Assembly: GCA_963779615.1 (NCBI GenBank)
Contig: CAVZZA010000001.1
Span: 1-64,000, forward strand
Length of the DNA stretch: 64,000 bases
Source of the DNA: an uncultured Nitrososphaeraceae archaeon
GTDB taxonomy: Archaea; Thermoproteota; Nitrososphaeria; Nitrososphaerales; Nitrososphaeraceae
Reading direction: 5' to 3'
Below, in pieces: positions 25,567 to 64,000 of the stretch. The notes under the pieces are model-generated. The model did not search any database. It was given only the letters and a program-made list of their open reading frames with translations, and was not told the origin of the DNA. How positions within the stretch are numbered: the first letter of the stretch is position 1; the number at the start of each line of letters is the position of its first letter. A program made the position numbers and the translations under genes.

Positions 25567-25613
25567 AACAGTAGTATTTGCTCTTATTTATATTATGTTT
25601 ACCTATCATAGAC

Positions 25614-39966: not shown

Positions 39967-40808
39967 TCACAGATCATGCTTCATCATATTAAAGAAATCC
40001 ACATCAGACATATTCTTCTTTCTTTGCAACCATTGTTCGACATCACCCCCAGCAGGATACCTCAACTTGGGGTTTTTATCAACAATCGCATCAAGTACTG
40101 CCTTTGCAACAAGTTCGGGGCCAGAGCCATTCTCAAGCATTTTACCAAGTCCATATTCCATATTTTGAAAAATTTTGGAATACGGCGAATTTGAATCTAA
40201 AGATTTTTTTGCCACAACAGAGGCATTAAAGAAATTTGTTTTGATGACCCCTGGCTCTACAAGAATTATTTTTATTCCAAATGGCTCCACCTCATACGCA
40301 AGCGATTCACTCAAACCTTCTACTGCAAACTTTGTGCTAACATAAATGGATCCCGTCGGGAAACCAAATCTCCCTGCACCAGAACTTATGTTAACTATTT
40401 TGCCTGAATTTTGATTTCTCATGATAGGCAAAACAGCTTGTGTGACCCGGATTAAACCAAAAAATTAGTCTCAAATTGTAATTTTATTTCATCCATAGAT
40501 ATATCTTCAAATGCCCCTACAAGCCCATAGCCTGCATTGTTTACCAAAACATCTATTTGTTCAGACTCAGCATAAATTGATTTTATTGCTTTATTTACAG
40601 AACTTTCATCAGTAACGTCAAGTTGCAAAATTTTCAGTTGGAGATTTTCTTTTTTGGCTACAGAGTTCAAAGACAAACCCTTTTTAGTGTCTCGCATTGT
40701 TGCATAGGTTATAAAACCATTACGTGCCAGAATCAAGGCGGTTTCATACCCTATCCCACTTGAACTGCCTGTGACTACCGAAACTTTTTTGCCAATAGAC
40801 ATATACAA
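39967..40808 (-). pseudogene. SDR oxidoreductase with a single frameshift
   Basis: TGSSSGIG and NNAG in 40452-40808; YVSTK in 39967-40431. One extra base in the A run 40459-40464 restores ETNFFGLIRVTQAVLP. Confidence 0.88.
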
Positions 40809-44471: not shown

Positions 44472-45374
44472 TTAACCACCACTAGTAGTAGTAGCAGAAA
44501 GGAATTTCCTTGCTTTTTTTAACACCGATATTTCATTTTCTGTTAATGGGTTTTTACTCAACAGTTCCTTAAATTGTAGGGCATTAACAATTGCTTTACC
44601 GCCATAATGGTTATTGAAATATACAAAAACAGAATCTGCTTGTTCTTTTATTTTTTTAATCTTATTCACCCATGGAATTAGTTCACTCTCAGAATACAAA
44701 TAATCATACCAATAATGATCTCTATTGTTGTTTCTTCCATGCAATCTTATTGCAGCATGTGTATTTGTTGCAATATTATTTTCATCAGATAAAAATCCCA
44801 GGTTTTCTTTGGATGGTGAATCGGTTAATACGGATGCGATATCATAGTGACGCAACATTTCAAATGTTCCTTCAGTATTCCAGGAAGGGTGTCTGAATTC
44901 TATTGAATAACGGTTACTTTTAATGTTCTCATCCTCTACACATAACCTATCCAAAAATTTTTCAGTTTTTTCAAACTCCTTGATTGTGAAGCTTGGCGGT
45001 AACTGAATAATGATTGTTCCTAATTTATTGGTGTGTTTAAGAGGTGATATCTTGTCCAAAAATGTTAGGAATTCAGGAATTACATTTTTATCGAGATCCA
45101 ATCTTTTCTCATGAGTAATTATCTCCGGAACTTTAACCGAAAATTTAAAATTATCAGGCGTTGCCTTGGTTAGGCCTATAAACAGCCCTTGGTTCAGGCT
45201 AAGGTAAAACTCTTTATAAAAAGTGGAATCCATTTCGACAGTGTTAAAAAACTGTGAATAGTACCTCAATTTCTTGGTTTTCTTATCAGGATAAAATACA
45301 TTTAACCATCCACCTTTATCTTGTGAATCATTATAGCTCCATCCAGAACACCCTATTAAAATGCTGGAAGTCAA
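44472..45374 (-). CDS. DUF72 (YecE-like) protein
   Basis: IGCSGWSY, NTVEMDSTFY, FSVKVP..ITH, QLPPSF, EFRH.SW, RLHGRN, YFNNH. Confidence 0.93.
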   Translation of the reverse strand: MTSSILIGCSGWSYNDSQDKGGWLNVFYPDKKTKKLRYYSQFFNTVEMDSTFYKEFYLSLNQGLFIGLTKATPDNFKFSVKVPEIITHEKRLDLDKNVIPEFLTFLDKISPLKHTNKLGTIIIQLPPSFTIKEFEKTEKFLDRLCVEDENIKSNRYSIEFRHPSWNTEGTFEMLRHYDIASVLTDSPSKENLGFLSDENNIATNTHAAIRLHGRNNNRDHYWYDYLYSESELIPWVNKIKKIKEQADSVFVYFNNHYGGKAIVNALQFKELLSKNPLTENEISVLKKARKFLSATTTSGG

Positions 45375-45425: not shown

Positions 45426-45992
45426 ATGGAACTACCATGGAATGATCCGCGATCGAACAAATTTGTAACTACTGTGGGCCTAATTACATCAGCAGGGCTT
45501 GATGGCCCTAACATAATGGCCTGCGAATGGACCCATCATATTTCATACAAGCCCGGGTTAATAGCTATTTCTTTAGGCCACACAAAGGATACGGTTAAAA
45601 ATATACGAAATACAAAGGAATTTGGCATAAATCTTTGTGCTGCAGACCAATCCATTCTCTCCAGCATTTCAGGTGGGTACAGCGGGAGCAAATATGACAA
45701 GGTTGAGGCATTAAAGGAACTGGGATTTGAATTCTACAAGGCAAGTAAAATTAAGGCATTAATGGTTAAAGGAGCCTCATTAAATGCAGAATGCCAACTA
45801 TTTCAAGAGATGTCTTTTGGAGACCATGTCATGTTTATTGGAGAAGTAATTGATGCAGTACACAATCCTGAAAAACAGCCATTAGTTTATCATGATGGAA
45901 AATACTGGTCATTGGTATCAGCAATGAAGCCTAAACCAGAGGAGAGAGAAAGGATAAGAAAAGTTGTAGAAAAGCATAAGAAAAGCAAATAA
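45426..45992 (+). CDS. flavin reductase family protein
   Basis: NIMACEW, T..NI..TKEFGIN, GDHVMFIGEV. Confidence 0.88.
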   Translation: MELPWNDPRSNKFVTTVGLITSAGLDGPNIMACEWTHHISYKPGLIAISLGHTKDTVKNIRNTKEFGINLCAADQSILSSISGGYSGSKYDKVEALKELGFEFYKASKIKALMVKGASLNAECQLFQEMSFGDHVMFIGEVIDAVHNPEKQPLVYHDGKYWSLVSAMKPKPEERERIRKVVEKHKKSK

Positions 45993-46385: not shown

Positions 46386-46736
46386 TCATATTTTTTTTAG
46401 AGAGGTTTTTTCCCTTAAAGCCAAGAACCCCGCTATTACAAAAAGAATCAGTCCAGGAATTGCAAAAAAATGCAGTACAAGAAAAAGAGCCCCACCACAT
46501 GCCATCAACGATACGCCAGCAATTTTGGTATTTTTTATTTTAAATGCAGCTACAATCGCGCCAATATTAATTGCGATTGTTATGAAAGCGCCTATTAACG
46601 CACTACCAAGTACTAACGCCAAAAGGGGGATTCCAATAATACTATTAACAAAAAAGTATAAAAAAAGTCCAAAAACGGGAATCACACTTCCGAGAATAGC
46701 AGTCACAAGGGTTAATTTTTGATAGTTCCTCATCAA
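46386..46736 (-). CDS. small multi-pass membrane protein
   Basis: Three to four hydrophobic segments in 116 aa. Confidence 0.7.
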   Translation of the reverse strand: MMRNYQKLTLVTAILGSVIPVFGLFLYFFVNSIIGIPLLALVLGSALIGAFITIAINIGAIVAAFKIKNTKIAGVSLMACGGALFLVLHFFAIPGLILFVIAGFLALREKTSLKKI

Positions 46737-47156: not shown

Positions 47157-47864
47157 ATGAGTAATTCTGATGATAACAAGGACAATTTTGATTGGAAAGA
47201 CAACAGCATTGAATGGAGTAAAATTATAAAAAAAGAGGCAAGAGGGTATGAAAAGGGGGATGACCTGGGAGAGGTTCAAGACATTGGGCAGGAATTTGTT
47301 GTTACAGAGAGGGGACGAGTATTAAAACACAAGTTTTACCTACCAAAGCACTTGGTAAAAGGATATGATGGAGACACCCTATGGTTCAATATTACAGAAG
47401 AGGATGCAGAAGATAATTTCAAAAAAGATCATCCACCAAAAGAAGGAGAATATTCAAGATATAAATCCGCCTCGGTAACCCAACAATATAATGATTCTTC
47501 ATCTACTTCAGAATCTGGCGATAATCCTAGCAAGTCTCAATCAAGTTATAGTTTAGAAGATCGCTTACCGTTGATGGAAAAACAGAATAGAGTCAATGAT
47601 ACCAGCAAAGGGGAATCATCGTCATTCAATTCGGTCATAGAAGACTGGGATTCAATCATCCATAAGGGGGTCAGAACCAAAGATATGCAATCAGTGGGCA
47701 ATGTAACCGCTGTGACTGAATCATCAATAATTATAACTTCTGAGGGCGCAAAAGAAGAATATAACGTTCCAAAAGAGGAAGTAGAAAGTTATAATGGTTC
47801 GGAGGTTACCCTTAACGCAACAAATGACAGGTTAAGTCACTTTAAGGTAAAAATTTCCAGGTGA
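47157..47864 (+). CDS. protein with two PRC-barrel-like repeats
   Basis: IEWSKIIKKEARG..DLGEVQ..FYLPK..V.GYDG and DWDSIIHKGVRT..VGNV..YNVPK..V.SYNG. Confidence 0.72.
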   Translation: MSNSDDNKDNFDWKDNSIEWSKIIKKEARGYEKGDDLGEVQDIGQEFVVTERGRVLKHKFYLPKHLVKGYDGDTLWFNITEEDAEDNFKKDHPPKEGEYSRYKSASVTQQYNDSSSTSESGDNPSKSQSSYSLEDRLPLMEKQNRVNDTSKGESSSFNSVIEDWDSIIHKGVRTKDMQSVGNVTAVTESSIIITSEGAKEEYNVPKEEVESYNGSEVTLNATNDRLSHFKVKISR

Positions 47865-48258
47865 TTTCTATCTTTTTTATTTATATAGGTTTCCTTTGAA
47901 TATTTGGACATGGGTTTTATTATTTTAATTTAATCCCATAACAAATAAAACAGCCAAAACAGTCATGACGTTTCGGTGGAAAATATGAACACCATCCAAA
48001 TACCGGGACGAGTAATTTATCACAATGAATTTTGATTATCATTTCATAAGTGATACACCATAAATAACGATATCAAAATCGTGGAAAGATCAGACATGGC
48101 CCGACTTTTCAAAAGTAAAGTCAGTAATTTCACAAAATATAAAATAATGACAAGAATAGAATATGACTATTATAAGAAATTGCACAAATGTATAATTTCA
48201 ATTTAATATAAAATTCTAATAATGTGGTATTTTAGAACAATCGTCTAAAAGAGATAAA

Positions 48259-49776
48259 GTGTACAATAGACAGATAGATACATTGAACGACAGATTTGAG
48301 AGAATCAAAGTCAATCAGTTGCAAAAGCGAGAGCTAAACTCAAACATACGCAATAACAATAAGCATAGCAACAAAAAAACTACTACTTTATCTACAAATA
48401 ATTATCAACACAATCAGCAGCAGCATCAACCCTCTTTATCCCGAACCTCTAAGATACAAATGTTTCGTAAAATAAGCCAAACAAAAATGCTGATAATGCC
48501 ACTGGCAATATTGTTACTTTCAAGCACAATTGTTATGGCAGCTTCAAATCTTGTGTTACCGTCAACGGCATACGCCATATCATTTGGAAGCACAAAGAAT
48601 TTAAGCAGTAACGATGGTGATTCACTTGACCCCCGAATAGAGGCGTCTGGCAATAATGTGTATACGGTATGGAGTGATTCAGGTGGAGTGGATGCCGATA
48701 TATTATTTAAAAGAAGCATTACCAGTGGAGACAGCTTTCAAGGTACCAAGGATTTAAGTGATGAAGATGGTGATGCGGAGGATCAAAGCATCGTAAAGGA
48801 AGGAAATAATGTGTATGTGGTATGGTCAGAGGATGGCGACGTATTCTTTAAAAGAAGCACCAATAATGGGGCAAGCTTTGGAGATACTATAAACCTAAGT
48901 GACGATAGTCATTTTTCCCACCTTCCGCAAATTGCTGTAACCGGCAACAACGTGTACATAGTGTGGGATGATGTGACAGTTGTTAATGGAGTGGATGAAT
49001 CTCAACTCCTCTTTAAAAGAAGCACCAATAATGGGGCAAGCTTTGGAGGTACAAAAATAATAACAGACATAGTTGAAACATTCAGGCCAAGGATAGCTGC
49101 TTCAGGAGACAATGTGTATATAGCTTTTACAGACGGAAGCGAAGATAATATGGAGTTAGCATTTACAAGAAGTACAAATGGAGGAAACAGCTTTAGCAAT
49201 GCCATAAGCATAAACAACAATGATGAAAATTCAGTTATTGGGGACATAGCAGCAGTAGGAAAGAATGTATACATTACATGGAAAGATGAAAGTTTGCCTA
49301 ACCAGCCATCACACGCTTTTTTTATAAGAAGTACAAACAATGGACAAAGCTTTGATAATATCAAAGATCTTGGATCTTCAAGCTCAGCACCTCAACTTGA
49401 TACAGTTTCAAGCAATGTTTATGTTGTATGGGCAAACGATGATGAAAACATAGCATTCAGGGCAAGTACAAATAATGGGGCAAGCTTTGGAAGCACAAAG
49501 ATATTAAGCAGTGATGGCAACTCATCAGATCCCCAGATATCCTCTTTGGGAAATGCGGTACGTATTGTTTGGGAAGGCGGTACCCCAAATTCTGATGTAT
49601 TCTTCAGGGCAAGCGGAAATGAGGGAAGTTCTTTTGGCAGCACAAAGAATCTAAGCAATAATGACGGCGATTCATCAAATCCTCAGATTATTTCATCGGG
49701 AGGCAAGATTTATGCAGTATGGCAGGACGATACACCTGGAAACTTTGACATATTCTTCAAGAAAGGGGTAGATTAA
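48259..49776 (+). CDS. secreted Asp-box/BNR (sialidase-like) repeat protein; start possibly ATG 48460
   Basis: Repeated NVYVVW...FKRSTNNGASFG...NLS units after a signal-like segment. Confidence 0.88.
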   Translation: MYNRQIDTLNDRFERIKVNQLQKRELNSNIRNNNKHSNKKTTTLSTNNYQHNQQQHQPSLSRTSKIQMFRKISQTKMLIMPLAILLLSSTIVMAASNLVLPSTAYAISFGSTKNLSSNDGDSLDPRIEASGNNVYTVWSDSGGVDADILFKRSITSGDSFQGTKDLSDEDGDAEDQSIVKEGNNVYVVWSEDGDVFFKRSTNNGASFGDTINLSDDSHFSHLPQIAVTGNNVYIVWDDVTVVNGVDESQLLFKRSTNNGASFGGTKIITDIVETFRPRIAASGDNVYIAFTDGSEDNMELAFTRSTNGGNSFSNAISINNNDENSVIGDIAAVGKNVYITWKDESLPNQPSHAFFIRSTNNGQSFDNIKDLGSSSSAPQLDTVSSNVYVVWANDDENIAFRASTNNGASFGSTKILSSDGNSSDPQISSLGNAVRIVWEGGTPNSDVFFRASGNEGSSFGSTKNLSNNDGDSSNPQIISSGGKIYAVWQDDTPGNFDIFFKKGVD

Positions 49777-50037
49777 AAAACTTCAAACCACACTTGCTTT
49801 TTTCAATTATTTTTTACTAAACTAATCAAAATTGTGAATTGCTATGTACATACAACATTTTTTTTATAGATTTCTAGGGTTACTAATTGTGCAGGACGCT
49901 AAACAACCTATAGATGATTCTTTTGAGATGGATTATTATGTAATTGCAGTATTTTTTTTAGCACCTATCAAATCAATTCCCTTAATGATTGTCAATTTGT
50001 GTAAAAAAAATTTAGTTGCTTACTTTGCTATATTCTT

Positions 50038-50931
50038 TTATGTTTTTGATGGGTTTTGTAGCTCCCGTGTCAGCCTCATCAGCTCAGAGTCAAGCCCCGA
50101 TGCGAACTCCTGCGGGGCGTCCGGAAGAATGGGTATGTCAACACCCTCAGGGAATCCCTCAATCACCTCCAGTGTTCCACCGTCATCAAACGGGGAGTCC
50201 CCCTTAAAGATTGTGTCAAGCAGGGACGTTTCTCCCTTGTTTGCGAATGTCCACATTTGGTTGTGCAGGTTCTTTCTCTCCAAGTCCTTTACCTCCGGCA
50301 TTTTGGACGTGTCAAGCCTTGGGACGGGCAGTGCCTTGCCCCAATTCACACCCAGTGCCTCCAGGGCCTTTGCAAAAACCTTTTCATGAACCAAATCCCT
50401 CACAATCAGGTATGATACGGTTGACCTGAATGCCTTGTCGTTGCTCATCTGGTACAGCCTGCATTTTTGCAGCCTGCCTGTGGACTCGAGCATGAGGTTG
50501 TAAAGCATGTTAAGCACAAGGTTTCCGCTGTCGTACACGTATGTGGCCGACCATGGGTTTCCGGCCGCATCCACAGGCCTGGCGCTCTGACCCGCAACCA
50601 AAAAGTGGTGTATGTTTGGCGAGTCAAGCGCAACTGACAATGGCAGCTCATCAGGCTCGGTTGAGTGTTCGGATGCGCCCTCAAGCAGCATGTTGATTGT
50701 GTTTGTGATCTGCTCGACATGCCCCATCTCCTCTGTGGCCATGCTCCTCAACAGGTCCTGGTAGGGTTTGGCGTCGCCCCTAAAGTTCATGTTCTGGAAA
50801 AAGTACTGCATCATGGTTCGCATTTCTCCAAACTGGCCGCCAAGCCCCTCCTGCAGCGCCTGGGCTGCCTTTGGGTTTGGGCTGTCTGCCGGTGGTATTG
50901 GATGCGGAAGTCTATTTACTGATATAAACAT
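50038..50931 (-). CDS. manganese catalase (KatN/YdbD-like)
   Basis: GGQFGE, ATEEMGHVE, NLMLE, RDLVHE Mn-ligand motifs. Confidence 0.94.
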   Translation of the reverse strand: MFISVNRLPHPIPPADSPNPKAAQALQEGLGGQFGEMRTMMQYFFQNMNFRGDAKPYQDLLRSMATEEMGHVEQITNTINMLLEGASEHSTEPDELPLSVALDSPNIHHFLVAGQSARPVDAAGNPWSATYVYDSGNLVLNMLYNLMLESTGRLQKCRLYQMSNDKAFRSTVSYLIVRDLVHEKVFAKALEALGVNWGKALPVPRLDTSKMPEVKDLERKNLHNQMWTFANKGETSLLDTIFKGDSPFDDGGTLEVIEGFPEGVDIPILPDAPQEFASGLDSELMRLTRELQNPSKT

Positions 50932-51556
50932 GAAATATATTATTTAACAAAGTATATGTTATAGCACATTTTTATTAATTTTTATTAATTTTTATTTATA
51001 ACAATTTCACTATTTACTGTATAATAAAACTATAATTTTATTTTAAAAGATTAATAAAACTCATAAAAACCGACATCAAATCCATAATATTTAATAATAA
51101 AAATTCTAATGAGTGGTTATTTCACAATGCTCAATTCCTTGCAATTTTATTATTGAGTTTCGTTTAATTTTCTTTCAAGTTATCTTATCCATACTAAAAA
51201 ATTTTTCATTGTGTTTTGGCTCTGCAAAGTTAAGGGTTTTGAAGATGGGAATGATTAATATTTTGGGGTTACTAAACAGTTATGAGAAATTTTCAGAATG
51301 AACTCAAATTACAACAATAAAACTATTTTTCTATTGGTTCAATAATGTACATTTACAGGGAAAGAAATCTCTTTCTTAACTTTACATGACCCATCTTGAC
51401 TTTTAATCTTTATAATTATGCTATACATTCATCAACCAATGAACCATTGTCAACACATTATCATTATCATGCAAGCTCCCGCACCTTCATTTGCAGGTAA
51501 TTTTGAAATATTCTTGCGGGTTTCTAGTCAATATCATTTAATGGTATAACGGTTCG

Positions 51557-54508
51557 TTGGAGAAAAAAATGTTGGAGAACTACAACAAGAAAAGAAATTT
51601 CAAATCAACTCCAGAGCCCTCTGGAACTAGCAGCACAAGTAAGGATTCGCCGCAGAATAACAAATCCGATTTCGGCAAGGCACGGTTTGTGATTCAAAAG
51701 CACGACGCCACTCGACTGCATTATGATTTCAGATTAGAGTCAAAAAAAAATAATGTACTGATATCATGGGCAGTACCCAAGGGGCCATCCACCAATTCAA
51801 AAGTAAAGAGACTGGCAATATTAACAGAGGACCATCCCACCAGCTACTTACTTTTTGAAGGCGTCATTCCTGAAGGGAATTACGGAGCTGGTTCTGTTAT
51901 AGTATGGGACACAGGAACATACTCATTGGAGGTAACTGATGGGAGAGATAGAGAGGAGGAAGATTTAGCAGATCAATTGGAAAGGGGAAAAATAAATTTT
52001 GCCTTATTTGGCCAAAAATTAAAGGGCAGGTTTTCAATAATTAAAACCACAAGAGAAAACCAATGGCTTTTAATTAAAGTAAATGATAAGCTGCCCTTTT
52101 CTCAAAACAGTCAACAAGAAGAAAATGAAACAGATTTGACCAAAAGCAGGCCAGAATCGGTTCTGAGTGGACTAACAAACGATGAGGTAAAAGGGTCAAG
52201 TGCATCCAGATCAAGTAGAGAACTAAATGACAATAGTAAAAACAATGCAGAATTAAAAAAGGATATTGAGACCAATACTAATAATGGAGATGCTATTAAC
52301 AATCACAGACCAACAATTGGCGGTGCAACTACTAATTCACTTTCCATGCATTCCTCTTTACATAACCAGGAGTTTTCAACCAATGTTGTTCATCCCATGC
52401 TAGCAACCTTAGTCGACAGGCCACCATTTAACAGCAAAGATTGGGTTTTTGAAATCAAATGGGACGGTGTAAGGTCTGTTTCATTTATTCACACCTTCAG
52501 AGAGGTATTTAAAATTCAATCAAGAAATGGAAAAACAATCACCCATAGATATCCGGAATTGGAGGAACCGCTAAAATCATCAATAAAGGAATATCAAAGT
52601 GTTGTTTTTGATGGAGAAATAGTCGTTTTAAATAAAAATGGCTATCCAGATTTTCAAAGTCATCAAAAAAGAATGAATGTTGATTTAAAGAGGGATGTTG
52701 AATCGCTGTCAAGGCAATTTCCAGCAACCTATTTCATTTTTGACATCCTTTATCTTGACGGATATGACCTGAAAACACTTCCCCTGATAGAAAGAAGGAA
52801 AATATTGGATAATTTAATAAGTAACAATAAAAGCAATCAGAGGATAAAAATATCAGAGTTTATCGAGGGTGAAGGTAACGATATCTTTGAAAGTATTAAA
52901 AGGATGAATCTGGAGGGAATGGTTGTCAAACACAAACTTAGCAGATACTATCTGGGTATCGAATCCAGTGAATGGCTAAAGATAAAGAACACCAAATCAC
53001 AGGATTGTGTAGTAATAGGATATACAAGAGGGGAAGGCAATAGAGAAAAATACTTTGGCTCCCTGCTTCTAGCGGCAAGGAGTAGCAATAAATCAGCTAA
53101 TTACAATAAATTCAAGTTTGTAGGTCATTGTGGAAGTGGTTTTAATTCTAAACAAGTTCCAATTATATACAACAATCTTAAAAATATCAAAACAGAAAAA
53201 TGCCCTATAGACTATGTGCCTTACACAAATAGAGAAACCACGTGGGTCAAACCTGCCCTTGTAGCAGAAATAAAATATGATGATTGGACAAGCGAGAAAA
53301 TCATGAGAGCACCAATATTTTTAAGATTTAGGGAGGACAAAAATCCACAAGACTGTGCCATAGAGGAAAACGAAAAAACAGTATTAGGTAATGTCATGGC
53401 CTCTGAAAAGAAAACTAGCGAAAATAAAAAAACCGAAATTCAACTGACTAAAATCAAAGACAAAGATGGTTCCAACTTCAAAGACAGAGTTTTTAACCAG
53501 ACAGTAAAACCACCTGCTCCCAAGACCTATTGCAGTTTCTCCAATCTGGACAAAATATATTGGGGTAAGACTAAAAACCATTCTTCAATCACGAAGGGAG
53601 ATTTGATTGAGTATTATGACCAAATCAGCTCGCTTATTCTTCCATACCTTAAAGATAGGCCGCTATCGCTAAATAGGTATCCAGATGGAATTGGCGGAAA
53701 GTCATTCTACCACAAAAACTGGCAAAACGAAAAACCAGAATATGTGCAAACCATTAAGGTGTATTCAAAATCAAAGGGCGAGGACATTAACTATCTTTTA
53801 TGCAATAACAAAGAAACTTTGTTGTGGCTTGCCAATCTTGGATGCATAGAAATGCATCCTTGGTACAGCAGAGTAAATAATCATTGTCTAAAAGACAGTA
53901 AAGACAGTTTTGATTCAGGCAATTGCGGATTAGATCATCCTGATTTTATAGTCTTTGACTTGGATCCCTACATTTATTCGGGTAATGAAAGCAAACATCA
54001 AGAACCCGAATATAATCTGATAGCATTTAAAGCAACAGTAGAGATAGCTTGTTGTTTAAAAGAGATCTTTGACAAATTAAATATAAAATCATTTGTAAAG
54101 ACCTCAGGAAAGACCGGACTCCACATATTTATTCCAATAGTCAATTTATACACATATGAGCAAACCAGATCTTTTGCTCAGGTTATAGGTAGGGTTTTAG
54201 CAAAGCGCTTGCCAGGCAAAATTACAACGGCATGGAATACTTTATATCGAAAAGGGAAAGTGTTCTTTGATTATAATCAAAACGCCCAAGGAAAAACAAT
54301 AGCTTCCATCTTCTCTCCAAGGCCTGTTGAGTCAGCCACTGTGTCCATGCCGCTAGAGTGGAATGATTTGTCACAGATAATCCCTACAGATTTTACTATC
54401 GCCAACGTAGTAGATATCTCTAAAAAAACAAAAGATCCATGGAAAAATGCTCTCACTGAAAAACAAGACCTTGTTAAAATCCTTGACAACATATCACAAA
54501 TCCCATAA
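51557..54508 (+). CDS. ligD: three-domain NHEJ DNA ligase D (3'-phosphoesterase - ATP-dependent ligase - primase/polymerase)
   Basis: PE: QKHDATRLHYDFRLE, SWAVPKGP. LIG: EIKWDG, DGEI, FDIL, EGMVVK, WLKIK. POL: RYPDGI, FDLDP, KTSGKTGLH, FDYNQN. Confidence 0.96.
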   Translation: MEKKMLENYNKKRNFKSTPEPSGTSSTSKDSPQNNKSDFGKARFVIQKHDATRLHYDFRLESKKNNVLISWAVPKGPSTNSKVKRLAILTEDHPTSYLLFEGVIPEGNYGAGSVIVWDTGTYSLEVTDGRDREEEDLADQLERGKINFALFGQKLKGRFSIIKTTRENQWLLIKVNDKLPFSQNSQQEENETDLTKSRPESVLSGLTNDEVKGSSASRSSRELNDNSKNNAELKKDIETNTNNGDAINNHRPTIGGATTNSLSMHSSLHNQEFSTNVVHPMLATLVDRPPFNSKDWVFEIKWDGVRSVSFIHTFREVFKIQSRNGKTITHRYPELEEPLKSSIKEYQSVVFDGEIVVLNKNGYPDFQSHQKRMNVDLKRDVESLSRQFPATYFIFDILYLDGYDLKTLPLIERRKILDNLISNNKSNQRIKISEFIEGEGNDIFESIKRMNLEGMVVKHKLSRYYLGIESSEWLKIKNTKSQDCVVIGYTRGEGNREKYFGSLLLAARSSNKSANYNKFKFVGHCGSGFNSKQVPIIYNNLKNIKTEKCPIDYVPYTNRETTWVKPALVAEIKYDDWTSEKIMRAPIFLRFREDKNPQDCAIEENEKTVLGNVMASEKKTSENKKTEIQLTKIKDKDGSNFKDRVFNQTVKPPAPKTYCSFSNLDKIYWGKTKNHSSITKGDLIEYYDQISSLILPYLKDRPLSLNRYPDGIGGKSFYHKNWQNEKPEYVQTIKVYSKSKGEDINYLLCNNKETLLWLANLGCIEMHPWYSRVNNHCLKDSKDSFDSGNCGLDHPDFIVFDLDPYIYSGNESKHQEPEYNLIAFKATVEIACCLKEIFDKLNIKSFVKTSGKTGLHIFIPIVNLYTYEQTRSFAQVIGRVLAKRLPGKITTAWNTLYRKGKVFFDYNQNAQGKTIASIFSPRPVESATVSMPLEWNDLSQIIPTDFTIANVVDISKKTKDPWKNALTEKQDLVKILDNISQIP

Positions 54509-54576
54509 AATAAAACTTTAACATACAAAGTCAAATTATTGCAAATCAAAAGAATCTCCACGCTATAAAAAATATT

Positions 54577-55443
54577 TTATTTTATGTTATTGGCAGTTTT
54601 ACTTTTAGAAACGCTCGCCCTCAAAGCTTCAAGAAGGTTGTCCCCTAAACCAGCCTCTTCCTCCTTTTCGTCAGAAGTGTATGTTTTTCCTTGCGACTTT
54701 GCAGATATTAGATCACCTAATTGTTTTGCATAATCATCAGAATACTGACTCGCATCAAATTCTTTGTTTGTCAAATTGTCAACCAAAGTTTTACCAAGCT
54801 CAATCTCCCTCTTATCCACTGGGGGAGAGGGAATCGAATTTTCGGTGCCTGGCATTCCCTCAATCTCGTCTATGGGTTTTATTTCTTCCTGATACATTAA
54901 TTGATGCATGATCAGGCCTTTCTGATATGATCGCAATGCAACAAGGTGTTCCTTATCTTTTAACACAACCTTGCCTATTGCTATCTTGTCCGTATCTTTA
55001 AGAGTGTTTACAAACAAGTTATATGCCTTGGTTGAAGTAGAATTGTTACTTCTTTTTTTACCCTTGCTATTTCTATGACTGTCGTTACCGACATCGGGTG
55101 CAACGTAATAGCTTTTTTCCACCAAGATGGGGTCAAACTCTTTTGCTTCAATAAATTCTTTGATGTCTATTGTTTTTGTGGTTTTTACCTTGATTTTTTC
55201 CAAATCCTCTTTTTCAATTAAAACATATGTGTCTTCGGATATTTCATAACCCTTTTTAATTTCAGAAAAAGGTATTTCCCTCTCTTCAACAGGACACCAT
55301 TTCTTATATTGAATTTTATGTCCTTCCCTATCTAATTGGTTGAATGAAAATTCATTATTATAGTCCGTTGTGGTATACAACTTAATAGGAATATTCACCA
55401 GCCCAAAGGATATACTCCCTTTCCATATACTTCTGCCACTCAT
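54577..55443 (-). CDS. ku: Ku DNA end-binding protein
   Basis: RSIWKGSISFGLVNIPIKLY, IKKGYE, YYVAP, DNLLEALRASV; ATG 55443 preferred as start. Confidence 0.96.
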   Translation of the reverse strand: MSGRSIWKGSISFGLVNIPIKLYTTTDYNNEFSFNQLDREGHKIQYKKWCPVEEREIPFSEIKKGYEISEDTYVLIEKEDLEKIKVKTTKTIDIKEFIEAKEFDPILVEKSYYVAPDVGNDSHRNSKGKKRSNNSTSTKAYNLFVNTLKDTDKIAIGKVVLKDKEHLVALRSYQKGLIMHQLMYQEEIKPIDEIEGMPGTENSIPSPPVDKREIELGKTLVDNLTNKEFDASQYSDDYAKQLGDLISAKSQGKTYTSDEKEEEAGLGDNLLEALRASVSKSKTANNIK

Positions 55444-56524
55444 ATGAACATAAACCCACAATTTTGTTAAAAAAAAAATATATGTATACCACATGTAAAA
55501 AAAAATTACTATTTACTTTAAATAATTTATAGTGAACATCAAGTCCAAATTCACCATTCAATACATTATTAAAATATTGAGAATCCGATTAGCCCAATAA
55601 AGGGGCTTTTAGTTATTCGGATTCTATTCAACCACACAAAAGAACAAATCGTCAAAACAAAAATATTTTATGCAAAAATCTAAAATCACCATTTTTACAA
55701 TTCAATAACTTGTCAAGCTCAGCAAATTGAATAGAGTAGAATTAAAAAATGCATCAAAGGTTGTAAACTTTATACCCCACATTCAACTATCCAGAAAATT
55801 TACCTTGTAAAAGGGAAATGGATAAACTATCAATCTTAATCAAAACAATAATTTCTTAGACAACAACTTAATTCTAAAGTTAAAAAAACAACGAGGTTTT
55901 TGTAATGTTCCATCAAAATCAAACTATGTTTGGCATGTTCACTGGAGGCTCTATCAAGGCATAGGTTTAAAGCTTTTGGGGTTATTGACTCTTCATCGCG
56001 ATTTATCATAAACTGGGAAAGAAATTATAAATATTGAGACATATTTGTATCATAATGACAAATTTTTCAGATTAAGTTTAAAAAGTTTTCCCACGAATTG
56101 TCACTAGATGGGAGACTTGGCCAATTCTGATAACCTATCCAACATTCCCATTTTCTTTATATTATTGTTAAACACCATATCGACAAATGGTTTTTTAAAT
56201 GGCGTTTCAATTGCATACAGGATGGAATTTGGTACTACAAGAGTACTAACCAAAGAGGAAGCAAATATCAATCAATTACCTTAATCTTGTTGCTAAGATG
56301 AGTAAAAAACCTATTACTATAAATATAATCAAGAAGTAAAAGGAATATCGTCATGAACATTTTCTTTATTAAAGTCAATGAATATAACTTCTTTACACAT
56401 TATTTGCAAAAAAATGCTTTTCTGCAAGGCCTACAATTAAGGATTACTAAAAAATAGAAGCAACAAGGTAGTGAATAAAATAATCTATTATAATACCCAC
56501 AGTAAGAAGAGTTGACCTTAGACA

Positions 56525-56833
56525 ATGCTATCCCATCCTAAATCCAATTCAATGTCATATCAAAATAAAGTTTGTAAAAATCTTTGCAAGATTCAAAATA
56601 CATACGAAACACTCAAAATTCGCAAATGGAGAGACGAATACCATAGATGGTGCCAGGAATGCGAAATCCTGTTTATTAATTGTGATAATTCCATTTGTAT
56701 TTGTTGTGGCAAGAGGTTAAAGTATAAGATAGGTACTGCTTTAGAAATTCAAAAAGAAAAAACTAAAAGGAATTATACAAAACAAAAGGAGTGGAGAAAT
56801 AAAAATAATAACGCTCAAGCAGATTCCAAATAG
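56525..56833 (+). CDS. small Cys-rich zinc-ribbon protein
   Basis: CKNLC, WCQECE, CICCGKRL. Confidence 0.65.
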   Translation: MLSHPKSNSMSYQNKVCKNLCKIQNTYETLKIRKWRDEYHRWCQECEILFINCDNSICICCGKRLKYKIGTALEIQKEKTKRNYTKQKEWRNKNNNAQADSK

Positions 56834-57577
56834 AAGCAGATTAGCAACAGAAAATAAAAAATAAAACCTATAAAATATAATACTTGCATTCTTTTGAGGG
56901 AAAACGAGTTCCTCGCATAAAGATTAATATAAAAGGTAGATTGAAACTACAACAATAAAAATATCTCAAAAAAATTAAAAGAAACTTTTTAAACATATCA
57001 AGCCTATATCAAGTTAAAGGCAATTTAAAAATATAATTAAACTTTTACAAATGGACTCTAGCACAAGAAATTTAAATGTTATACATGCTATGTTTTTTAA
57101 CAACAATATCAAGCATGTCCACAATAAAGAAAAGACATTATATTCAAACCATATCAAAGATATAAAAAGATTTGAGGTTTAAAGAACAACTACTACTATT
57201 TCCTCAATAGATTCACGGTAAAGTAACAAAAATTTAGCATTGGAAAAATAAAGTGGTTAGCAAGGTTATGAATTACCGGATTATTGTCATTATTATCGGA
57301 AAAGAGGATCCACTGGGTTTAAGAAGACTATTGATACTCAAATAAAGCAAATATTAATTCGGCTTCAAGTAATGATACACACCATTATCTAAATTCACGT
57401 TTGCAATACAATGATATGAATATACAAATCATATCAGACTATCGCAAATAACAAGTTTTGGGGTCAAATTTTAAATATTTATATGATTATACAATTAATT
57501 ATAATAATATCATTGTTTCTTTTATAAAACAATATAATTGTTATGCTTAAATAGTTGATTAATTAAAATTTGGTAAG

Positions 57578-57718
57578 ATGAGTAACAAGAAAAATGACAA
57601 AACTGTCAAAAATGACAAAAGGGGATTAGCCTCAGCAAATGAGGAAACTAAAAAAAGAGTTGCTAGCGAAGGCGGGAAGGCATCACATAAGAATGACAAT
57701 AAAGGCAAGAAAAAATAA
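57578..57718 (+). CDS. 46-aa KGG-motif stress protein (YciG/Con-10-like; absent from the ORF track)
   Basis: MSNKKNDKTVKNDKRGLASANEETKKRVASEGGKASHKNDNKGKKK*. TATA-like element upstream and T-tracts directly downstream. Confidence 0.85.
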   Translation: MSNKKNDKTVKNDKRGLASANEETKKRVASEGGKASHKNDNKGKKK

Positions 57719-57905
57719 ACAATAATCTTTTTTTCATTTTTTCATTTTTTTATTTACCATGTTTTTAAGTAAGGCTCTACTAATGTTAATAACCTTTGTG
57801 AAAGGTTATGAATAGATTACAAACAAACCCATATTTTTAATTATTAATATGATTAAGACCGAATATGAGATCATATTAATAGCTTTTGTTCAGTAGTTAT
57901 TTTCA

Positions 57906-58057
57906 ATGAGCAATTCCTCTCAGGAAAAGAATAAGAAAAATTACGATTTAGAACAATCACAAAACAATCCAATGAAGTAGGTAATGCAGAAAATAATCCT
58001 GAAACGGAAGGTCCATCAGAAAGTCTCAGAGAAGAGGCACTTGAAAACAACAAATAA
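57906..58057 (+). pseudogene. frameshifted small acidic protein
   Basis: MSNSSQEKNKKNYDLEQS, then a second frame KQSNEVGNAENNPETEGPSESLREEALENNK*. Confidence 0.4.
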
Positions 58058-58579
58058 TGAAAGTGACCAGAAAGAACCAGCATAAATCCCTTATTTTTGT
58101 TTTTATTTTATTATATAAATTAGATTTATTGAATTGTATAGAGACCTAATACGGTGTTCATCCGATAGGGAATTAAACTCAAAAATGAATATGGTAACTA
58201 TTTCACAACCACAACATTGATGATTATCTTTGCATGTTTACCATTATTAAATAACTAAATTCTTTCATACAACAAACACAACTCCAAAACATTATAGAGA
58301 TTTTATATGAAACTATTGGTGGTATACAGTATTTTCATAAAATCTAATTTTGTAGAGACCTGTTGTTTTCTGTTAGGCACAAATTATACACAAATGGTGA
58401 ATAAATAATAGTTAACAACATAACAAAAATATAAAAAAGCCAAAATTGCTCTTCTGCACTATCAACCATTTTTGGAAGCCAGATAACTCACACTGCTGCT
58501 TATTTTCCTAATTGCAAAATCTCATCATCTCATTTTACTATAGTCATTTTATTTAAATCATGTTAAACAAAACAAACAG

Positions 58580-59095
58580 ATGTCAAAGTCATCATCAAAA
58601 CCGTCTAAAGAAGACCAAAAGAATTTGGGGAAAAAACTGGGGGAGGTTTTAGGCCTTGAGAGAGCAGCCCAAAAAGCAGTAGAGGAATTAAACTCTATGA
58701 AATTATTGGATTCAGGTGCAAAAAAACAAATATTAGGTATGAAAGAAGAAGCAGGTACTCATGAAGAAAAGATTGAGCAATTGATTTTGGACATTTCTGA
58801 AGAAAATGAAGATTTGAAAATAGACCAAGACAGTATAGAAGAGACTGCGAAAGAAACAGAAAAGAAAGCGGTCAAAATGATGAAAACATACTTGGGAGAG
58901 GATCCCGACTCATCAGAAGCAATAGAATTTCTAGCTCTAGCTGAGGGCGGAGAAGTGATTCATTATGAAGTTTTACATGCCATAAGCAAAAACTTCAAAG
59001 GTAAAGAATTAACAAATACAATAAATTCCATTTTAAAAGAAGAACAAAAACATTTACAGCTTTGTATAGATTTAGCAAAAGAAAGCGTTTCTTAA
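58580..59095 (+). CDS. ferritin-like (YciE/YciF, DUF892-type) protein
   Basis: LE..., EAGTH, AE..E..HY, EEQKH four-helix di-metal ligand pattern. Confidence 0.75.
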   Translation: MSKSSSKPSKEDQKNLGKKLGEVLGLERAAQKAVEELNSMKLLDSGAKKQILGMKEEAGTHEEKIEQLILDISEENEDLKIDQDSIEETAKETEKKAVKMMKTYLGEDPDSSEAIEFLALAEGGEVIHYEVLHAISKNFKGKELTNTINSILKEEQKHLQLCIDLAKESVS

Positions 59096-59836
59096 CCCCC
59101 TAACTCTTTTATTTTAATAGAGGATGAAAACGATATTGGCTTTAAAGAACAAATCCCATTTTTAAGTTACAGATGTAGTTGCCAGGTTTGATTAATTTTC
59201 ATCTTTAAATCAATTTGTGCGAGATAAACAGAAAAAACAATATGTTAACTTTCAATGCTTGAATAATAAAATAAACTACTAATTCCATTAAATTTAAAAA
59301 CATTAGGTAAATGAATCTAGCGACACAAAAATACCTCAATATATAGAAATGCATGCAGGGGCATTTGTAATAGGATACCGAGAATTTACTGGCGAATCTT
59401 TAAGTTTTTGTTTGGTAGTAGGAAATTAAGAAAAAAAGAATGAAAATCGAATTTTCAAATGTATATGTATATTGACGAATCGATTGATTTAAATTATGCA
59501 TTTGTTGGCATACAGTCTCGACAAAATGTTTGCCTATTTGATACAAATGAAATTCAGCCACATGTTTAATTAAAAAAAACAGTTAAAACAAACTTGTAGT
59601 TAAGGAAAAGCATAGTCTTCGTTACAATGCATCAAGATTGAGATTTCATTCCACCTTTACCAAAATAAGCTCTTAAGTAACCAACATTAATTAAGATTAC
59701 TGATAGTGATATTAAATCAAATGAGAATCCTTATAAAATAAATAGAAAAGCCGGGATTTTAATATGTATGTTACCAAATAAATGACTTTTCTTAAATAAG
59801 GACTTTATATATAATTGTTGATATATTATTACAAAT

Positions 59837-61552
59837 GTGAATAATGATACATTTTGTGGTCGGGACTACCATGAAAAAACAAAGCATTCAGAAATCAGTG
59901 TAATGACCTCAGGACATTATTTGGATTGGAATAACCGGCCAAGCCCCTTTAAAATATATACAGAATTACCAACAATACCTCTTCCACTAGATTTTTCCAT
60001 GCCATCTATGAATTCAATATTGGCAATTAGCAGGTTATACCCCCAACTCGAACAATCTGAAGACTATGATAATAATGTTGACACTAATGTACAGATCTCT
60101 AAAGATATTGACTATACCAATACCAATACCAATACCTTATCTTTACAAGATCTATCCACTATTCTATTCTTTTCAGGGGGTATTACTCGGGAGATAAAAC
60201 ACGATGGTGTTACCTTTTATATGCGAGCTGCATCCGCTACAGGAGCGCTCTATCCAATTGAAATGTATATAGTTTGCAAAGATATTTCTCCAAATTTAAA
60301 AGCAGGAATATATCACTTTAATCCAGCTGAATTCAGCCTCACAAATATTCGCAAAGGCGACCACAGATCATTATTGGCATCAATGGCTGGAGATAATCAA
60401 CACATACTAAAATCCCCTGTTACAATAATATTCACATCATACGCATGGAGAAATGCGTGGAAATATCAAGAGCGTTCTTTTAGGCATTGGTTTTGGGATT
60501 CGGGAGTCATAGCATCCAATCTTCTTGCAACAACAATATCAATGGATATCCATACAAAGATAATTATGGGTTTTATTGATGACAAGGTTAACCATCTTTT
60601 AGCTTTAGAAAAAGAGAAAGAAGCATCAATAGCAATGGCAGCTTTAGATATTGAATCAAGCCAGAACTTTTCTGCAAATGAAAATAACGATACAGAAAAA
60701 GAGCAGATTCCATCTTTATCTTTGAAAATTGATCCCCTGTCAAGAAAGGAAATACAATATCCAGAAATATGGAAAACATATAATTGCTCAAAACTCCATA
60801 GTGGGGACGAAGTAAAAGAATGGGTAAATTCCGGGATATCCCAGACATCGGGTTTTATTTCGTTCAAGGAAGATTTAGCACCATCCAAAGAAAAAATATT
60901 GAGAAGACGCGACTTATCAAATGACTATAGACTTTTTGATATTCCAAGTATCGGAGAAACAATATTAAGACGGGGTTCGACCCGCAGATTTTCTAAATCC
61001 TCGATTTCATTTTCGACTCTTTCAAGTATAATATACAATTCAACCAGAGGAATACCAACAGATTTCAACAAAGATACAGAAACATTGATAGACATTTATT
61101 TGATCGCTAATGATGTCGAAGGGTTAGATAAAGGTGGATATTTCTATAACCATGTTCATAATTCACTAGACCACATAAAAGACAAAGTATCAAGGGATTT
61201 ATCGGGTTATTTATGTCTAAATCAATCTCTTTTCAGCGATGCAAGTGTGGTTATATTCATAATGACTAATCTGAACAAAATTTTCAAAACTTTAGGCAAT
61301 AGAGGATACAGAGCAGCTCAATTTGAAGCAGGAATTATTGCAGGAAAAATATACCTTTCATCTTATGCTCACGGTATGGGTGCATCTGGCTCTACATTTT
61401 ATGATGATGCGGTAACAGAATTCTTTTTACCCCATTCAAAGGACAAAGATACAATGATAGCAATAGGTATAGGGATTCCGGCATATAAAGCACGCCCTGG
61501 AAAAATACCGTTAGGAAGAATCACAAGAGAACAGTTGATGAGAGACAAATAA
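59837..61552 (+). CDS. SagB/ThcOx-family tandem nitroreductase-fold protein
   Basis: YHEKTKH, RAASATGALYPIE, WKYQERSFRH..WDSG, RRGSTRRF, GYRAAQFEAG. Confidence 0.9.
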   Translation: MNNDTFCGRDYHEKTKHSEISVMTSGHYLDWNNRPSPFKIYTELPTIPLPLDFSMPSMNSILAISRLYPQLEQSEDYDNNVDTNVQISKDIDYTNTNTNTLSLQDLSTILFFSGGITREIKHDGVTFYMRAASATGALYPIEMYIVCKDISPNLKAGIYHFNPAEFSLTNIRKGDHRSLLASMAGDNQHILKSPVTIIFTSYAWRNAWKYQERSFRHWFWDSGVIASNLLATTISMDIHTKIIMGFIDDKVNHLLALEKEKEASIAMAALDIESSQNFSANENNDTEKEQIPSLSLKIDPLSRKEIQYPEIWKTYNCSKLHSGDEVKEWVNSGISQTSGFISFKEDLAPSKEKILRRRDLSNDYRLFDIPSIGETILRRGSTRRFSKSSISFSTLSSIIYNSTRGIPTDFNKDTETLIDIYLIANDVEGLDKGGYFYNHVHNSLDHIKDKVSRDLSGYLCLNQSLFSDASVVIFIMTNLNKIFKTLGNRGYRAAQFEAGIIAGKIYLSSYAHGMGASGSTFYDDAVTEFFLPHSKDKDTMIAIGIGIPAYKARPGKIPLGRITREQLMRDK

Positions 61553-62738: not shown

Positions 62739-64000
62739 GGCTCTGTTAACAGTTATGTAAACAATATGTTATAATTTCATGTAAACTAATAGTGCTCGAT
62801 CAGACACCATAACACCTTTAGCTAACTCTTTCTTCTAAATTGTCATTATGAGGGATACTTTCCTCAGAATGCTTACCGATGATGAAAAGAACACACTTCA
62901 TCTGTTGCTTGAAGACAAAGAATCCGGGTATAGGGCAAAGATAATCCTGCTCAAAGATGAAGGGTATTCAGTTCCTGAAATAAGAAGAGCAACTAACCAT
63001 CATGATAGTAACATAAGAAAATGGATACACAGATTCAATGAAAATGGCATAGATGGAATAATATCAAAAATACACAATCATAAACCAATCAAGATATCTA
63101 TTGACGTGGAGAACAAGATTGTGGGTATAGTAACCAAAAACCCAAGAAAAGATTATGGATTATCCTTTTCCACATGGTCATTACGTGTACTGGCTGGATA
63201 TATCTCCAAGGAGATAAATCTTATAGACGCCATAAGCCATACTGGGATTAGAAATATCCTTTTAAAACATCATGTCAAATGGAGACAGTCAAAGATAACC
63301 TTGGGAAACAGTCTGGACCCCGAATACCATTTGAAAAAAAGAGAATCGAGGATCTAAGATACAGTTTACCACCTCACTCAATACTGCTCTACGAAGACGA
63401 GAAAGGACCCATTGTTGCAAAAACATATGGTGGTACGTCTTGGTCCTCCACACAGTCCAGGGTATCAAAGGCTCAAAAGACAAAGGGAATTCTAAACGTG
63501 TTTGGTGTCTATGATCACACCAATAATCAAATGTGGACACATGGATACAAAAAGAAAACAGGAAAACAGTTTTTAGATTTTATCAAACGAGTAGACCAAA
63601 AGTATGACGACAGTACCAAGCAGGTATTTCTGGTACTTGACAACATATCGATACACAAATCAAATAAGGTAAAACAAACCTTGGCCAGATACCATCCAAG
63701 GATACAATTTGTATTTCTTCCGACCAGATCACCCGAGCTCAATCTGATAGAGGTAAGATGGCTATGGATGCATAGACAAGCTATTAACAACTCCACCTTT
63801 CAAAATGAACGCGATATAGGTAAAGCAGTATCTGATTGGGCATGCGATTACAATAAAAAACATCCAGGCAAAACGAGTATAAACAGTTTACATGAAGAGA
63901 GCATCTACATGTTTACATAACTGTTAACTTAACATATCATTTCTTTATCGTAAGATCCAATGAATAAATTAAACATTTTCTTTATGTGCTTTAATTTGCA
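62739..64000 (-). mobile_element. IS6 right end interrupted by IS630; the element continues beyond the window
   Basis: Removing IS630 and one TA gives GGCTCTGTTAACTTAACATATCATTTCTTTATCG..., which matches the reverse complement of the IS6 right end at 25566. Confidence 0.88.
62749..63924 (+). mobile_element. IS630-family element (ORFs 62848-63357 and 63279-63920 joined by a -1 frameshift)
   Basis: 15-bp IRs ACAGTTATGTAAACA / TGTTTACATAACTGT; TA duplication (62747-62748, 63925-63926); A7G at 63334-63341; YEDE, LDNISIH, SPELNLIE motifs. Confidence 0.94.

Follow-up and report, generated by a model that had tools for sequence, protein, structure and literature searches.

A probably layered neighbourhood of end-joining, catalase and small stress-type genes in a Candidatus Nitrosocosmicus genome

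Can a manganese (Mn) catalase, a bacterial-type DNA end-joining pair and several small stress-type proteins that lie within 12 kb of one another in an archaeon be regarded as a single genetic unit? The question is raised by positions 47157-59095 of the window, the stretch of DNA analysed here, which comprises the first 64 kb of contig C1 of a Candidatus Nitrosocosmicus genome (Nitrososphaeraceae; 3.17 Mb in 5 contigs). A preliminary description of this DNA had regarded the span as an archaeal stress and dormancy island that resembles the bacterial yciG-yciF-katN genes joined to Ku and LigD. The genes that it listed (encoding a PRC-barrel-like protein, Mn catalase, LigD, Ku, a KGG-like micro-protein, an acidic protein remnant and a YciF-like ferritin) are all present, as judged by profile, structure and open reading frame (ORF) evidence. 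It had passed over a 505-aa repeat protein, a Cys-rich protein of 102 aa (orf102), a broken ORF of ~96 aa and the foreign composition of the catalase gene.

Our preferred reading, to which we assign a probability of about 0.6, is that the locus is a layered composite neighbourhood that was neither acquired nor is regulated as one unit. A first layer would be formed by bacterial-type Ku and three-domain LigD, which are arranged tail-to-tail and kept together throughout the genus. A second, belonging to one Nitrosocosmicus subclade, would add a tandem PRC-barrel protein on one side of this pair and orf102, a KGG/LEA-like (late embryogenesis abundant) micro-protein, a small acidic protein and a YciF-fold protein on the other. 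In a third, found in this genome only, a piece of ~3.3 kb carrying the repeat protein and a foreign second Mn catalase would have been put between the PRC gene and LigD. Each gene would be under its own TATA-like promoter block, and a plausible common role is to help the cell through oxidative stress, drought or phases without growth in soil. Below, G000 denotes the genome under study, whereas other G-numbers denote genomes of the genus, L-numbers fetched loci and C-numbers contigs.

The end-joining pair and its neighbours in relatives

Gene order was established from the ORF listing and from profile scans (Pfam and NCBIfam). The LigD gene (51557-54508, + strand) encodes a 983-aa protein with the domain order phosphoesterase, ATP ligase, primase/polymerase. 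Pfam LigD_N, DNA_ligase_A_M, DNA_ligase_A_C and LigD_Prim-Pol together span aa 47-962, and the NCBIfam score for TIGR02776 (481.3 bits; cut-off 373.2) is accompanied by scores over the cut-off for all three domain models. The Ku gene (54577-55494, - strand) matches PF02735 at 149.5 bits (cut-off 25) and TIGR02772 at 242.8 bits (cut-off 150), which places its product in the Ku family. Its likely start is M18 at 55443, where the ATG is conserved and relatives align from residue 16-18.

Together, Ku and LigD constitute a predicted non-homologous end joining (NHEJ) system. As in the two-component systems of Mycobacterium, Pseudomonas and Bacillus, a single-domain Ku adjoins a multi-domain LigD, and both proteins pass NCBIfam equivalog cut-offs. 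In contrast to the co-oriented bacterial pairs, the pair described here is convergent, has an archaeal host and is known from sequence. By analogy with bacteria, its function would be the template-free sealing of double-strand breaks in non-growing cells. In B. subtilis and M. smegmatis, Ku/ligase mutations make stationary-phase cells and spores sensitive to radiation, and Nitrosocosmicus Ku proteins appear in a published Ku phylogeny (PMC11936186). The complete NHEJ complex is reported to have been gained from bacteria by the ancestor of the Nitrososphaerales (PMC7554672).

To compare gene order, 20 kb around Ku from nine congeners (L013-L016 and L018-L022) and from a member of another family (L017) were searched with the window proteins. 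Ku and LigD are tail-to-tail in all nine congener loci, L017 holds Ku and a ligase-domain match, and Ku is present in 19 of 24 other genus genomes sampled. Four close relatives (L018-L021) carry the order DUF72 - flavin reductase - membrane protein - PRC - LigD - Ku - orf102 - KGG, with protein identities of 65-92% from PRC to KGG. The YciF-like gene is also found in three of these four, and two continue to SagB within the fetched stretch. The corresponding genes at the left side of the window locus encode a DUF72 protein (44472-45374, - strand), a flavin reductase (45426-45992, + strand) and a small membrane protein (46386-46736, - strand). At the right side, the SagB-type nitroreductase-domain protein (571 aa; 59837-61552, + strand) is part of the conserved synteny block, and a nitroreductase-domain protein was upregulated in all strains of ammonia-oxidising archaea (AOA) tested in a biofilm study (PMC12448741). 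In L021 (G018:C18:495500-515499), Ku has internal stops, LigD aligns as two pieces and the YciF-like ortholog is 64 kb off; judging from its reading frames, the end-joining pair appears to be decaying there.

The remaining five congener loci retain Ku-LigD only. The flanks of the pair in two distant congeners are unrelated to those in the window and encode a methyltransferase, an FAD/Rieske oxidoreductase, an endonuclease/phosphatase-family protein and histidine kinases. The distance from Ku-LigD to the other genes in such congeners ranges from tens of kb to Mb. For example, the single contig of G015 has Ku at 171 kb, the YciF-like gene at 189 kb, catalase at 2056 kb and KGG-like genes at 2844 kb, and in G020 and G024 catalase and Ku are on different contigs. 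The comparison with congeners that had been called for gives a divided answer, with a shared order in the four close relatives and Ku-LigD alone in the distant ones. The preliminary description had named, as evidence that would speak against it, scattering of the genes in relatives together with a lack of co-expression or of a shared promoter motif; the scattering in distant congeners is half of this.

A second manganese catalase beside LigD

The spacer between the PRC gene and LigD measures 3693 bp in G000 versus ~330-400 bp in relatives. It holds the gene for the repeat protein (48259-49776, + strand) and Mn catalase copy 1 (50038-50931, - strand), neither of which occurs at any of the 10 Ku loci examined. 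Because both are missing from all nine congener loci, the ~3.3-kb piece is an insertion seen only in G000, and the proposal that the 12 kb form one island fails on this point. The repeat protein has an N-terminal hydrophobic segment and no Pfam or NCBIfam match, and its gene is missing between PRC and LigD in all four close relatives. In 33 other genus genomes the top match shares 41% identity with it, and its closest relative is a paralog on C5 of G000 (43-46%).

Catalase copy 1 belongs to the Mn catalase family by its match to PF05067 (224.4 bits, profile positions 1-265 of 284); its score against the bacterial equivalog NF052557 is 194 bits, under the cut-off of 350. Mn catalase was found in 27 of 34 genus genomes, and G000 carries two full copies whose proteins are 89% identical. 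Copy 1 has a GC content of 0.53 and a third-position GC content (GC3) of 0.64, whereas the native copy 2 (C1:155328-156215) has values of 0.41 and 0.33. The flanks of both copies have a GC content of 0.35 and the genome one of 0.33. Over the rest of the locus GC is ordinary, so that the catalase alone deviates.

A catalase tree of 47 rows was built from the two G000 copies and 45 of 74 related loci, namely those with a single full-length, stop-free match. Six high-GC catalases (GC3 0.58-0.64, flanks 0.35-0.40), which are the window copy and those of L047, L050, L052, L068 and L079, form one clade inside the Nitrosocosmicus catalases (support 98/91). This clade is sister to a low-GC clade that holds the native copy of G000, and L102 and L109 carry broken high-GC copies. 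The high-GC copies are 80-84% similar to one another in nucleotide sequence, one broken copy reaching 76%, and this similarity does not extend past the gene borders. Their contexts differ, and a survey of 72 catalase loci (see below) revealed no YciF-like or PRC-like neighbours of high-GC copies. Copy 1 is a high-GC xenolog or paralog, and the composition of its clade could stem from a donor lineage, a mobile carrier or selection.

These data bear on the possibility that the span is a genomic island that moved as a block from bacteria. In its favour, the families concerned (Ku, LigD, Mn catalase, KGG, YciF and DUF2382) are found chiefly in bacteria, and a bacterial origin has been published both for NHEJ and for Mn catalase, the latter as a gain from Terrabacteria by the Nitrososphaerales ancestor (PMC7554672). 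However, composition deviates in the catalase only, and the nearest relatives of copy 1 are archaeal (76-90% identical), the only bacterial matches reaching 34%. The parts of the locus differ in phyletic depth, and relatives share synteny for the flanking DUF72, flavin reductase and SagB-like genes. A tRNA scan found no tRNA in the window, and there is no integrase among the Pfam matches in the 12-kb span. Judged by span-wide deviant composition, an integration signature and absence as a block, the locus is not a horizontally acquired island, only the 3.3-kb piece being insertion-like; we consider transfer as a block highly improbable.

The right edge of the insertion carries possible traces of a mobile element. 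There, a 17-mer (51218-51234) similar to the terminal repeat of an abundant insertion sequence (IS) of ~665 bp has a weaker inverted partner ~140 bp away. The element that they delimit (51218-51391, strand not assigned), between catalase and LigD, is a possible remnant of a miniature inverted-repeat transposable element; its identification is uncertain because no target duplication was seen. Copies of the IS, which encodes a DDE_Tnp_IS240-type transposase fragment, occupy 24900-25566, 29243-29908 and 36226-36888 of the window. More than 100 sites similar to its terminal repeat occur genome-wide, with pairs on the + and - strands ~650 bp apart. Further transposase fragments are located at 1746-2611 and 62848-63920. 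A protein of 881 aa whose N-terminus is a Prim-Pol domain (8064-10709) is encoded close to transposase and DUF5131 fragments at the start of the contig, and may belong to a mobile or viral remnant.

An IS also affects the native catalase. A 669-bp element with 17-nt terminal inverted repeats and an 8-bp direct duplication (C1:156232-156900; L122:10233-10901) lies 16 nt upstream of the start codon and parts the gene from a TATA-like sequence. Expression of the native copy may be impaired as a result, and the high-GC copy may be a compensation for this damage. A 17-nt match between the upstream regions of copy 2 and a PRC paralog, considered as a regulatory site, proved to be the abundant IS terminal repeat and was discarded. 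Catalase activity has been shown in N. oleophilus MY3 (PMC11656794), and the manganese catalases (MnKat) of this organism and its relatives are of the same family as those described here (76-90% identical). G000 differs in having two copies, one of them of the high-GC type, and an IS just upstream of the native one; the published MnKat account, in the portion drawn on here, makes no mention of a second high-GC copy or of such an IS (PMC11656794).

Broken reading frames affect at least four genes in the window: the YsnF-like gene, the small acidic ORF, the ~96-aa ORF (~59250-59570) and a short-chain dehydrogenase/reductase gene split at 39967-40808. The ~96-aa ORF is intact in L018, L019 and L020, and here has a stop and a frame change within an A-rich run. 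These four cases suggest many pseudogenes or homopolymer assembly errors. Such breakage, the transposase fragments and IS copies of the window, the abundance of IS ends in the genome and the genome-specific insertion would all be expected if the genes were juxtaposed by chance in a plastic, IS-rich region, their adjacency having no functional meaning. This explanation does not account for the order from PRC to KGG being kept in four relatives, nor for a catalase/YciF/PRC adjacency that is seen repeatedly, at 26-29% of loci and in more than one genus of the family. We therefore view pure chance as improbable.

Resemblances of the neighbouring proteins

The PRC protein (235 aa; 47157-47864, + strand) matches Pfam DUF2171 (PF09939) over aa 169-225 at 25.8 bits, with a cut-off of 25. 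Both of its halves are matched by one paralog region (C3:362766-363041), and the motif order repeats twice in an alignment of eight orthologs. An AlphaFold 2 (AF2) model exhibits the same strand/helix pattern in both halves, with predicted local distance difference test (pLDDT) values of 81-90 for the C-domain and 49-68 for the N-domain; the linker (~aa 96-159) is disordered. The best 12 structure matches of the C-domain (Z 8.1-5.7) are to the RimM C-domain, the reaction-centre H subunit, CdpB/PRC and CdvA, with Z values of 8.1 for RimM, 7.7 for reaction-centre H, 7.6 for A. fulgidus PRC1/2 and 5.8 for CdvA. Because of the internal homology and the shared secondary-structure pattern, the N-terminal half is assigned as a further PRC domain, and the protein as modelled is a true tandem of PRC-barrel domains. 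Orthologs adjoin LigD in L018-L021, and full-length orthologs lie 1.6-2.7 kb from Mn catalase in L051, L056, L059, L060 and L065.

A YsnF-like gene reported earlier at 25.6 kb, outside the 12-kb span, was borne out, although it is frameshifted (25578-26292, + strand). Its product matches DUF2382 at 58 bits (25954-26271) and has a PRC-like N-terminus, the pieces of which are in two frames directly downstream of an IS copy (IS end at 25550-25566). Elsewhere in G000, four YsnF-like (DUF2382) genes stand in tandem beside a dodecin gene (C3:746-751 kb; L126:6353-11296), and two universal stress protein (Usp) genes are grouped with a true DUF892 gene (C5:393.5-399.4 kb; L128). These two groups are further small clusters of stress-type genes in this genome.

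The orf102 gene (56525-56833, + strand) encodes a protein that is 87-92% identical in four relatives and so is more conserved than Ku or LigD. The ~240 nt upstream of it are conserved as strongly as the gene (78-82% nucleotide identity), giving a conserved block at 56284-56833. No Rfam family was found for the upstream block, and the window as a whole has no Rfam match at the gathering threshold. The protein has no Pfam, NCBIfam or PHROG match, and among 5.8 billion proteins only nine clusters align with it, over 62-100% of the query and all at 73% identity or more over the aligned part. Its nearest neighbours in a protein atlas are unnamed viral clusters (0.90-0.91), a signal too weak to be used. 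PHROG searches also gave no match for the PRC, KGG-like or YciF-like proteins.

The 46-aa hydrophilic micro-protein with one KGG/LEA-like repeat (57578-57718, + strand) is conserved in four relatives, as is a TATA-like block upstream of it. It is the one-repeat form of a two-repeat family of 58-66 aa that is common in Nitrososphaeraceae. The Pfam KGG model (PF10685; 22-residue repeat, cut-off 20.4 bits) does not match it at E up to 10, and found nothing across the whole G000 genome, where 18 candidates were scored. Half of the members of its family (15/30) match KGG weakly, with a best E of 0.0018, and an hhalign comparison of the family profile with E. coli YciG gave no alignment. The profile retrieves 477 representatives at E up to 0.001. 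Among 148 of these that were scanned (the best 150, minus two already in the family set), 26 score high enough for the KGG cut-off and 3 for that of LEA_5, and 4 are DUF2795 fusions, figures to be read with the proviso that low-complexity repeats can attract each other. As many as 104 of the 148 lack any Pfam family at E up to 0.01, and 2 of the other 44 have only a sub-cut-off LacI match. Judging from these profile comparisons, the 46-aa protein is probably KGG/LEA-like in a loose sense and is not a Pfam-level member. The small acidic ORF downstream (~57906-58057, + strand) was correctly described as a remnant. According to tblastx, its pieces share a frame in relatives but not here, and it is intact in L020 (55 aa), so that the split reflects either a pseudogene or an assembly indel.

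The YciF-like gene (58580-59095, + strand) encodes a 171-aa protein whose AF2 model (pLDDT 91) has five helices. In VIA-align comparisons, ranks 1-4 are YciF-type chains (Z 18.0-17.7, 152-153 residues aligned), among them 7tmv (Z 18.0), E. coli YciF 2gs4 (Z 17.9) and Salmonella YciF 4eru (Z 17.7). Bacterioferritin and Dps reach Z 15.7-17.2 with 133-152 residues aligned, so the lead of the YciF chains is small, and Foldseek E-values are weak (3.5e-3 to 3e-2). The match to Pfam DUF892 (PF05974) covers positions 5-154 of 159 at 12.5 bits (E 0.15), under the cut-off of 23.7; a true DUF892 gene elsewhere in G000 (C5:398849-399304) scores 42-43 bits. Invariant residues include E27, E57, H61, E92, E122, E125, H128, E155 and H158. 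A PDB sequence search with the profile retrieved no YciF, only spurious hexokinase/glucokinase motif matches and a designed di-iron protein. In its modelled structure, the protein is a ferritin-like helical bundle closest to YciF. Of the labels in the preliminary description, YciF holds for the fold and KGG probably holds in a loose family sense; membership at the Pfam cut-off holds for neither.

Promoters, recurring linkage and regulation

The genes of the locus are on both strands with spacers of 0.2-1 kb, those after Ku, orf102 and the KGG gene measuring 0.7-1 kb. Alignment with the four relatives reveals that the starts of the PRC, KGG-like and YciF-like genes are each preceded, at 20-35 nt, by a conserved TATA-like block of their own, the block of Ku lying further upstream. 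With mixed strands and separate blocks, the locus is not a same-strand operon of the yciGFE-katN type. The enterobacterial operon combines a KGG-repeat small protein with ferritin-like proteins of the DUF892/YciF type and an Mn catalase, and proteins resembling these are encoded here. In E. coli K-12, yciG, yciF and yciE are adjacent and so annotated. The yciGFE(katN) locus, katN included, is reported to be sigma-S dependent. Unlike the enterobacterial proteins, the KGG-like and YciF-like proteins here fall under Pfam cut-offs, and the family profile of the former does not align with E. coli YciG. Moreover, the catalase here is a late insertion, and the PRC-barrel protein, Ku-LigD and orf102 have no counterpart in that operon.

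A second bacterial comparison is with Bacillus subtilis, in which gsiB, ydbD and ysnF are sigma-B general stress genes. This set includes a KGG/LEA-like repeat protein, an Mn catalase and a PRC-like/DUF2382 protein, family types akin to those seen here. Because archaea have no sigma factor, membership in that regulon is not transferable to the locus described here, where, in addition, the YsnF-like gene is frameshifted.

Shared promoter words were sought by counting k-mers of 6-8 nt in 22 AT-rich upstream regions, delimited by crude start calls, against 2034 background regions. Only AT-rich words were enriched, the best being ATATAT (p 4e-5 before correction), so the shared promoter motif that had been anticipated did not emerge from this test of low power. 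In four soil RNA libraries from four studies there are contigs, for the most part 95-99% identical, that overlap portions of the PRC, repeat protein, catalase (50176-50910, at 95-99%), LigD, Ku, orf102 and YciF-like genes. The runs are assembled contigs that each hold at most 0.07 of the sampled words, which permits no ranking of expression, and the contigs demonstrate presence in RNA, not co-expression. The KGG-like gene and the large spacers are covered by no RNA contig, which proves nothing.

The alternative closest to the preliminary description is a co-regulated dormancy or desiccation island, an archaeal counterpart of the sigma-S and sigma-B clusters under a dedicated archaeal regulator. 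Besides the presence of most locus genes in soil RNA libraries, it has linkage beyond G000 in its favour. Of 72 archaeal Mn-catalase loci, 19 have a YciF-like gene and 21 a PRC/DUF2171-like gene no more than 5 kb from catalase, with one or the other in 33. Among the 33 loci that have at least 3 kb on both sides, the corresponding counts are 6, 16 and 18. Rough chance expectations, derived from 2 YciF-like and ~11 PRC-like loci in the 3.17 Mb of G000, are ~1-2% and ~4%; the catalase loci are related by descent and not independent, so this comparison is not a formal test. YciF is found divergent from, downstream of and upstream of catalase, giving at least three arrangements in lineages whose catalases are 72-82% identical. 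Within the genus, 8 of 34 genomes (G000, G009, G010, G011, G016, G019, G023 and G048) have KGG-like and YciF-like genes no more than 5 kb apart. Linkage of some families exceeds chance at the family level, and the proximity of catalase, YciF-like and PRC-like genes across the family argues for a functional coupling of those three. The earlier idea of a linked toolkit survives for catalase with YciF-like or PRC-like genes and for KGG with YciF. It does not extend to KGG and catalase, since a KGG-like gene occurs within 10 kb of catalase in 1 of the 72 loci and in none of the 33.

A dedicated regulator could be sought among the paralogs of transcription factor B (TFB). In 7 of the 72 loci, representing at least two lineages (L059, L060, L065 and L074; L066, L069 and L072), catalase has a TFB paralog as a neighbour no more than 5 kb away, for example at L060:5994-6947, and another at L017:12481-13323 is ~2 kb from Ku. 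AOA carry 4-11 TFB copies, proposed to give regulatory flexibility (PMC7554672). Because of this multiplicity, the enrichment near catalase is only suggestive, and so is the role of the catalase-linked paralog as a candidate regulator. This paralog is missing from the window and has no ortholog in G000, where the best match is 46% identical, and profile scans found no TFB or other recognisable regulator within the 12-kb locus. The regulator that had been taken to be implied is an inference without support here. Transcripts of Nitrosocosmicus MnKat in soil are described as possibly constitutive (PMC11656794). The main text of a biofilm transcriptome paper does not mention catalase, DNA repair or ferritin. 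The dispersal of the genes in more distant congeners, the genome-specific insertion of the catalase, the lack of a common promoter word beyond AT-rich ones and the rarity of KGG near catalase also argue against a co-regulated island, which we hold to be unlikely.

Several points weigh against our preference for a layered composite. The promoter search was weak, given the few AT-rich regions and crude start calls on which it drew, and the locus genes may yet be co-regulated. Many relatives are represented by fragmented assemblies, so that missing linkage there is often undecidable. The roles of the PRC, KGG-like, acidic, orf102 and YciF-like proteins are predicted from family resemblance alone. 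The re-association of catalase, YciF and PRC in at least three arrangements, and the landing of a catalase once more beside the PRC gene in G000, fit selection for proximity better than accident. Taken further, these last observations would describe a persistent but shuffling catalase/YciF/PRC stress neighbourhood to which one clade has added Ku-LigD and a KGG/LEA-like gene. It would be a counterpart of bacterial general-stress clusters switched by a TFB paralog, in which re-insertion of a catalase would reflect selection to keep the module. We consider this quite unlikely in its full form, and a regulated archaeal stress module is best treated as a testable minority hypothesis.

Under the layered composite reading, the locus nevertheless adds to what has been described for the clade. 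Catalase and end joining were already known there; what is new is that YciF-like, PRC-barrel and KGG/LEA-like neighbours, which are uncharacterised, recur beside them. In the main texts of the literature searched, we found no report tying catalase or NHEJ genes to YciF-like, KGG-like or PRC-barrel neighbours, and none treating Nitrososphaera together with YciF. As far as we found, the family-wide togetherness of catalase, YciF-like and PRC genes, sometimes with a TFB, is unreported.

The YciF-like, PRC-barrel and KGG/LEA-like genes are concrete candidates for stress-survival functions, and the recurring TFB paralog offers a testable idea of how a general stress response might be organised in archaea. 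The locus also exhibits live catalase turnover, in which an IS has severed the native copy from its likely promoter while the genome has acquired a compositionally foreign copy. Among ammonia oxidisers, the catalase-bearing Nitrosocosmicus is the one that predominates in rhizospheres and on surfaces exposed to air (PMC11656794, PMC11561398), and its persistence is of practical interest for nitrogen loss from soil.

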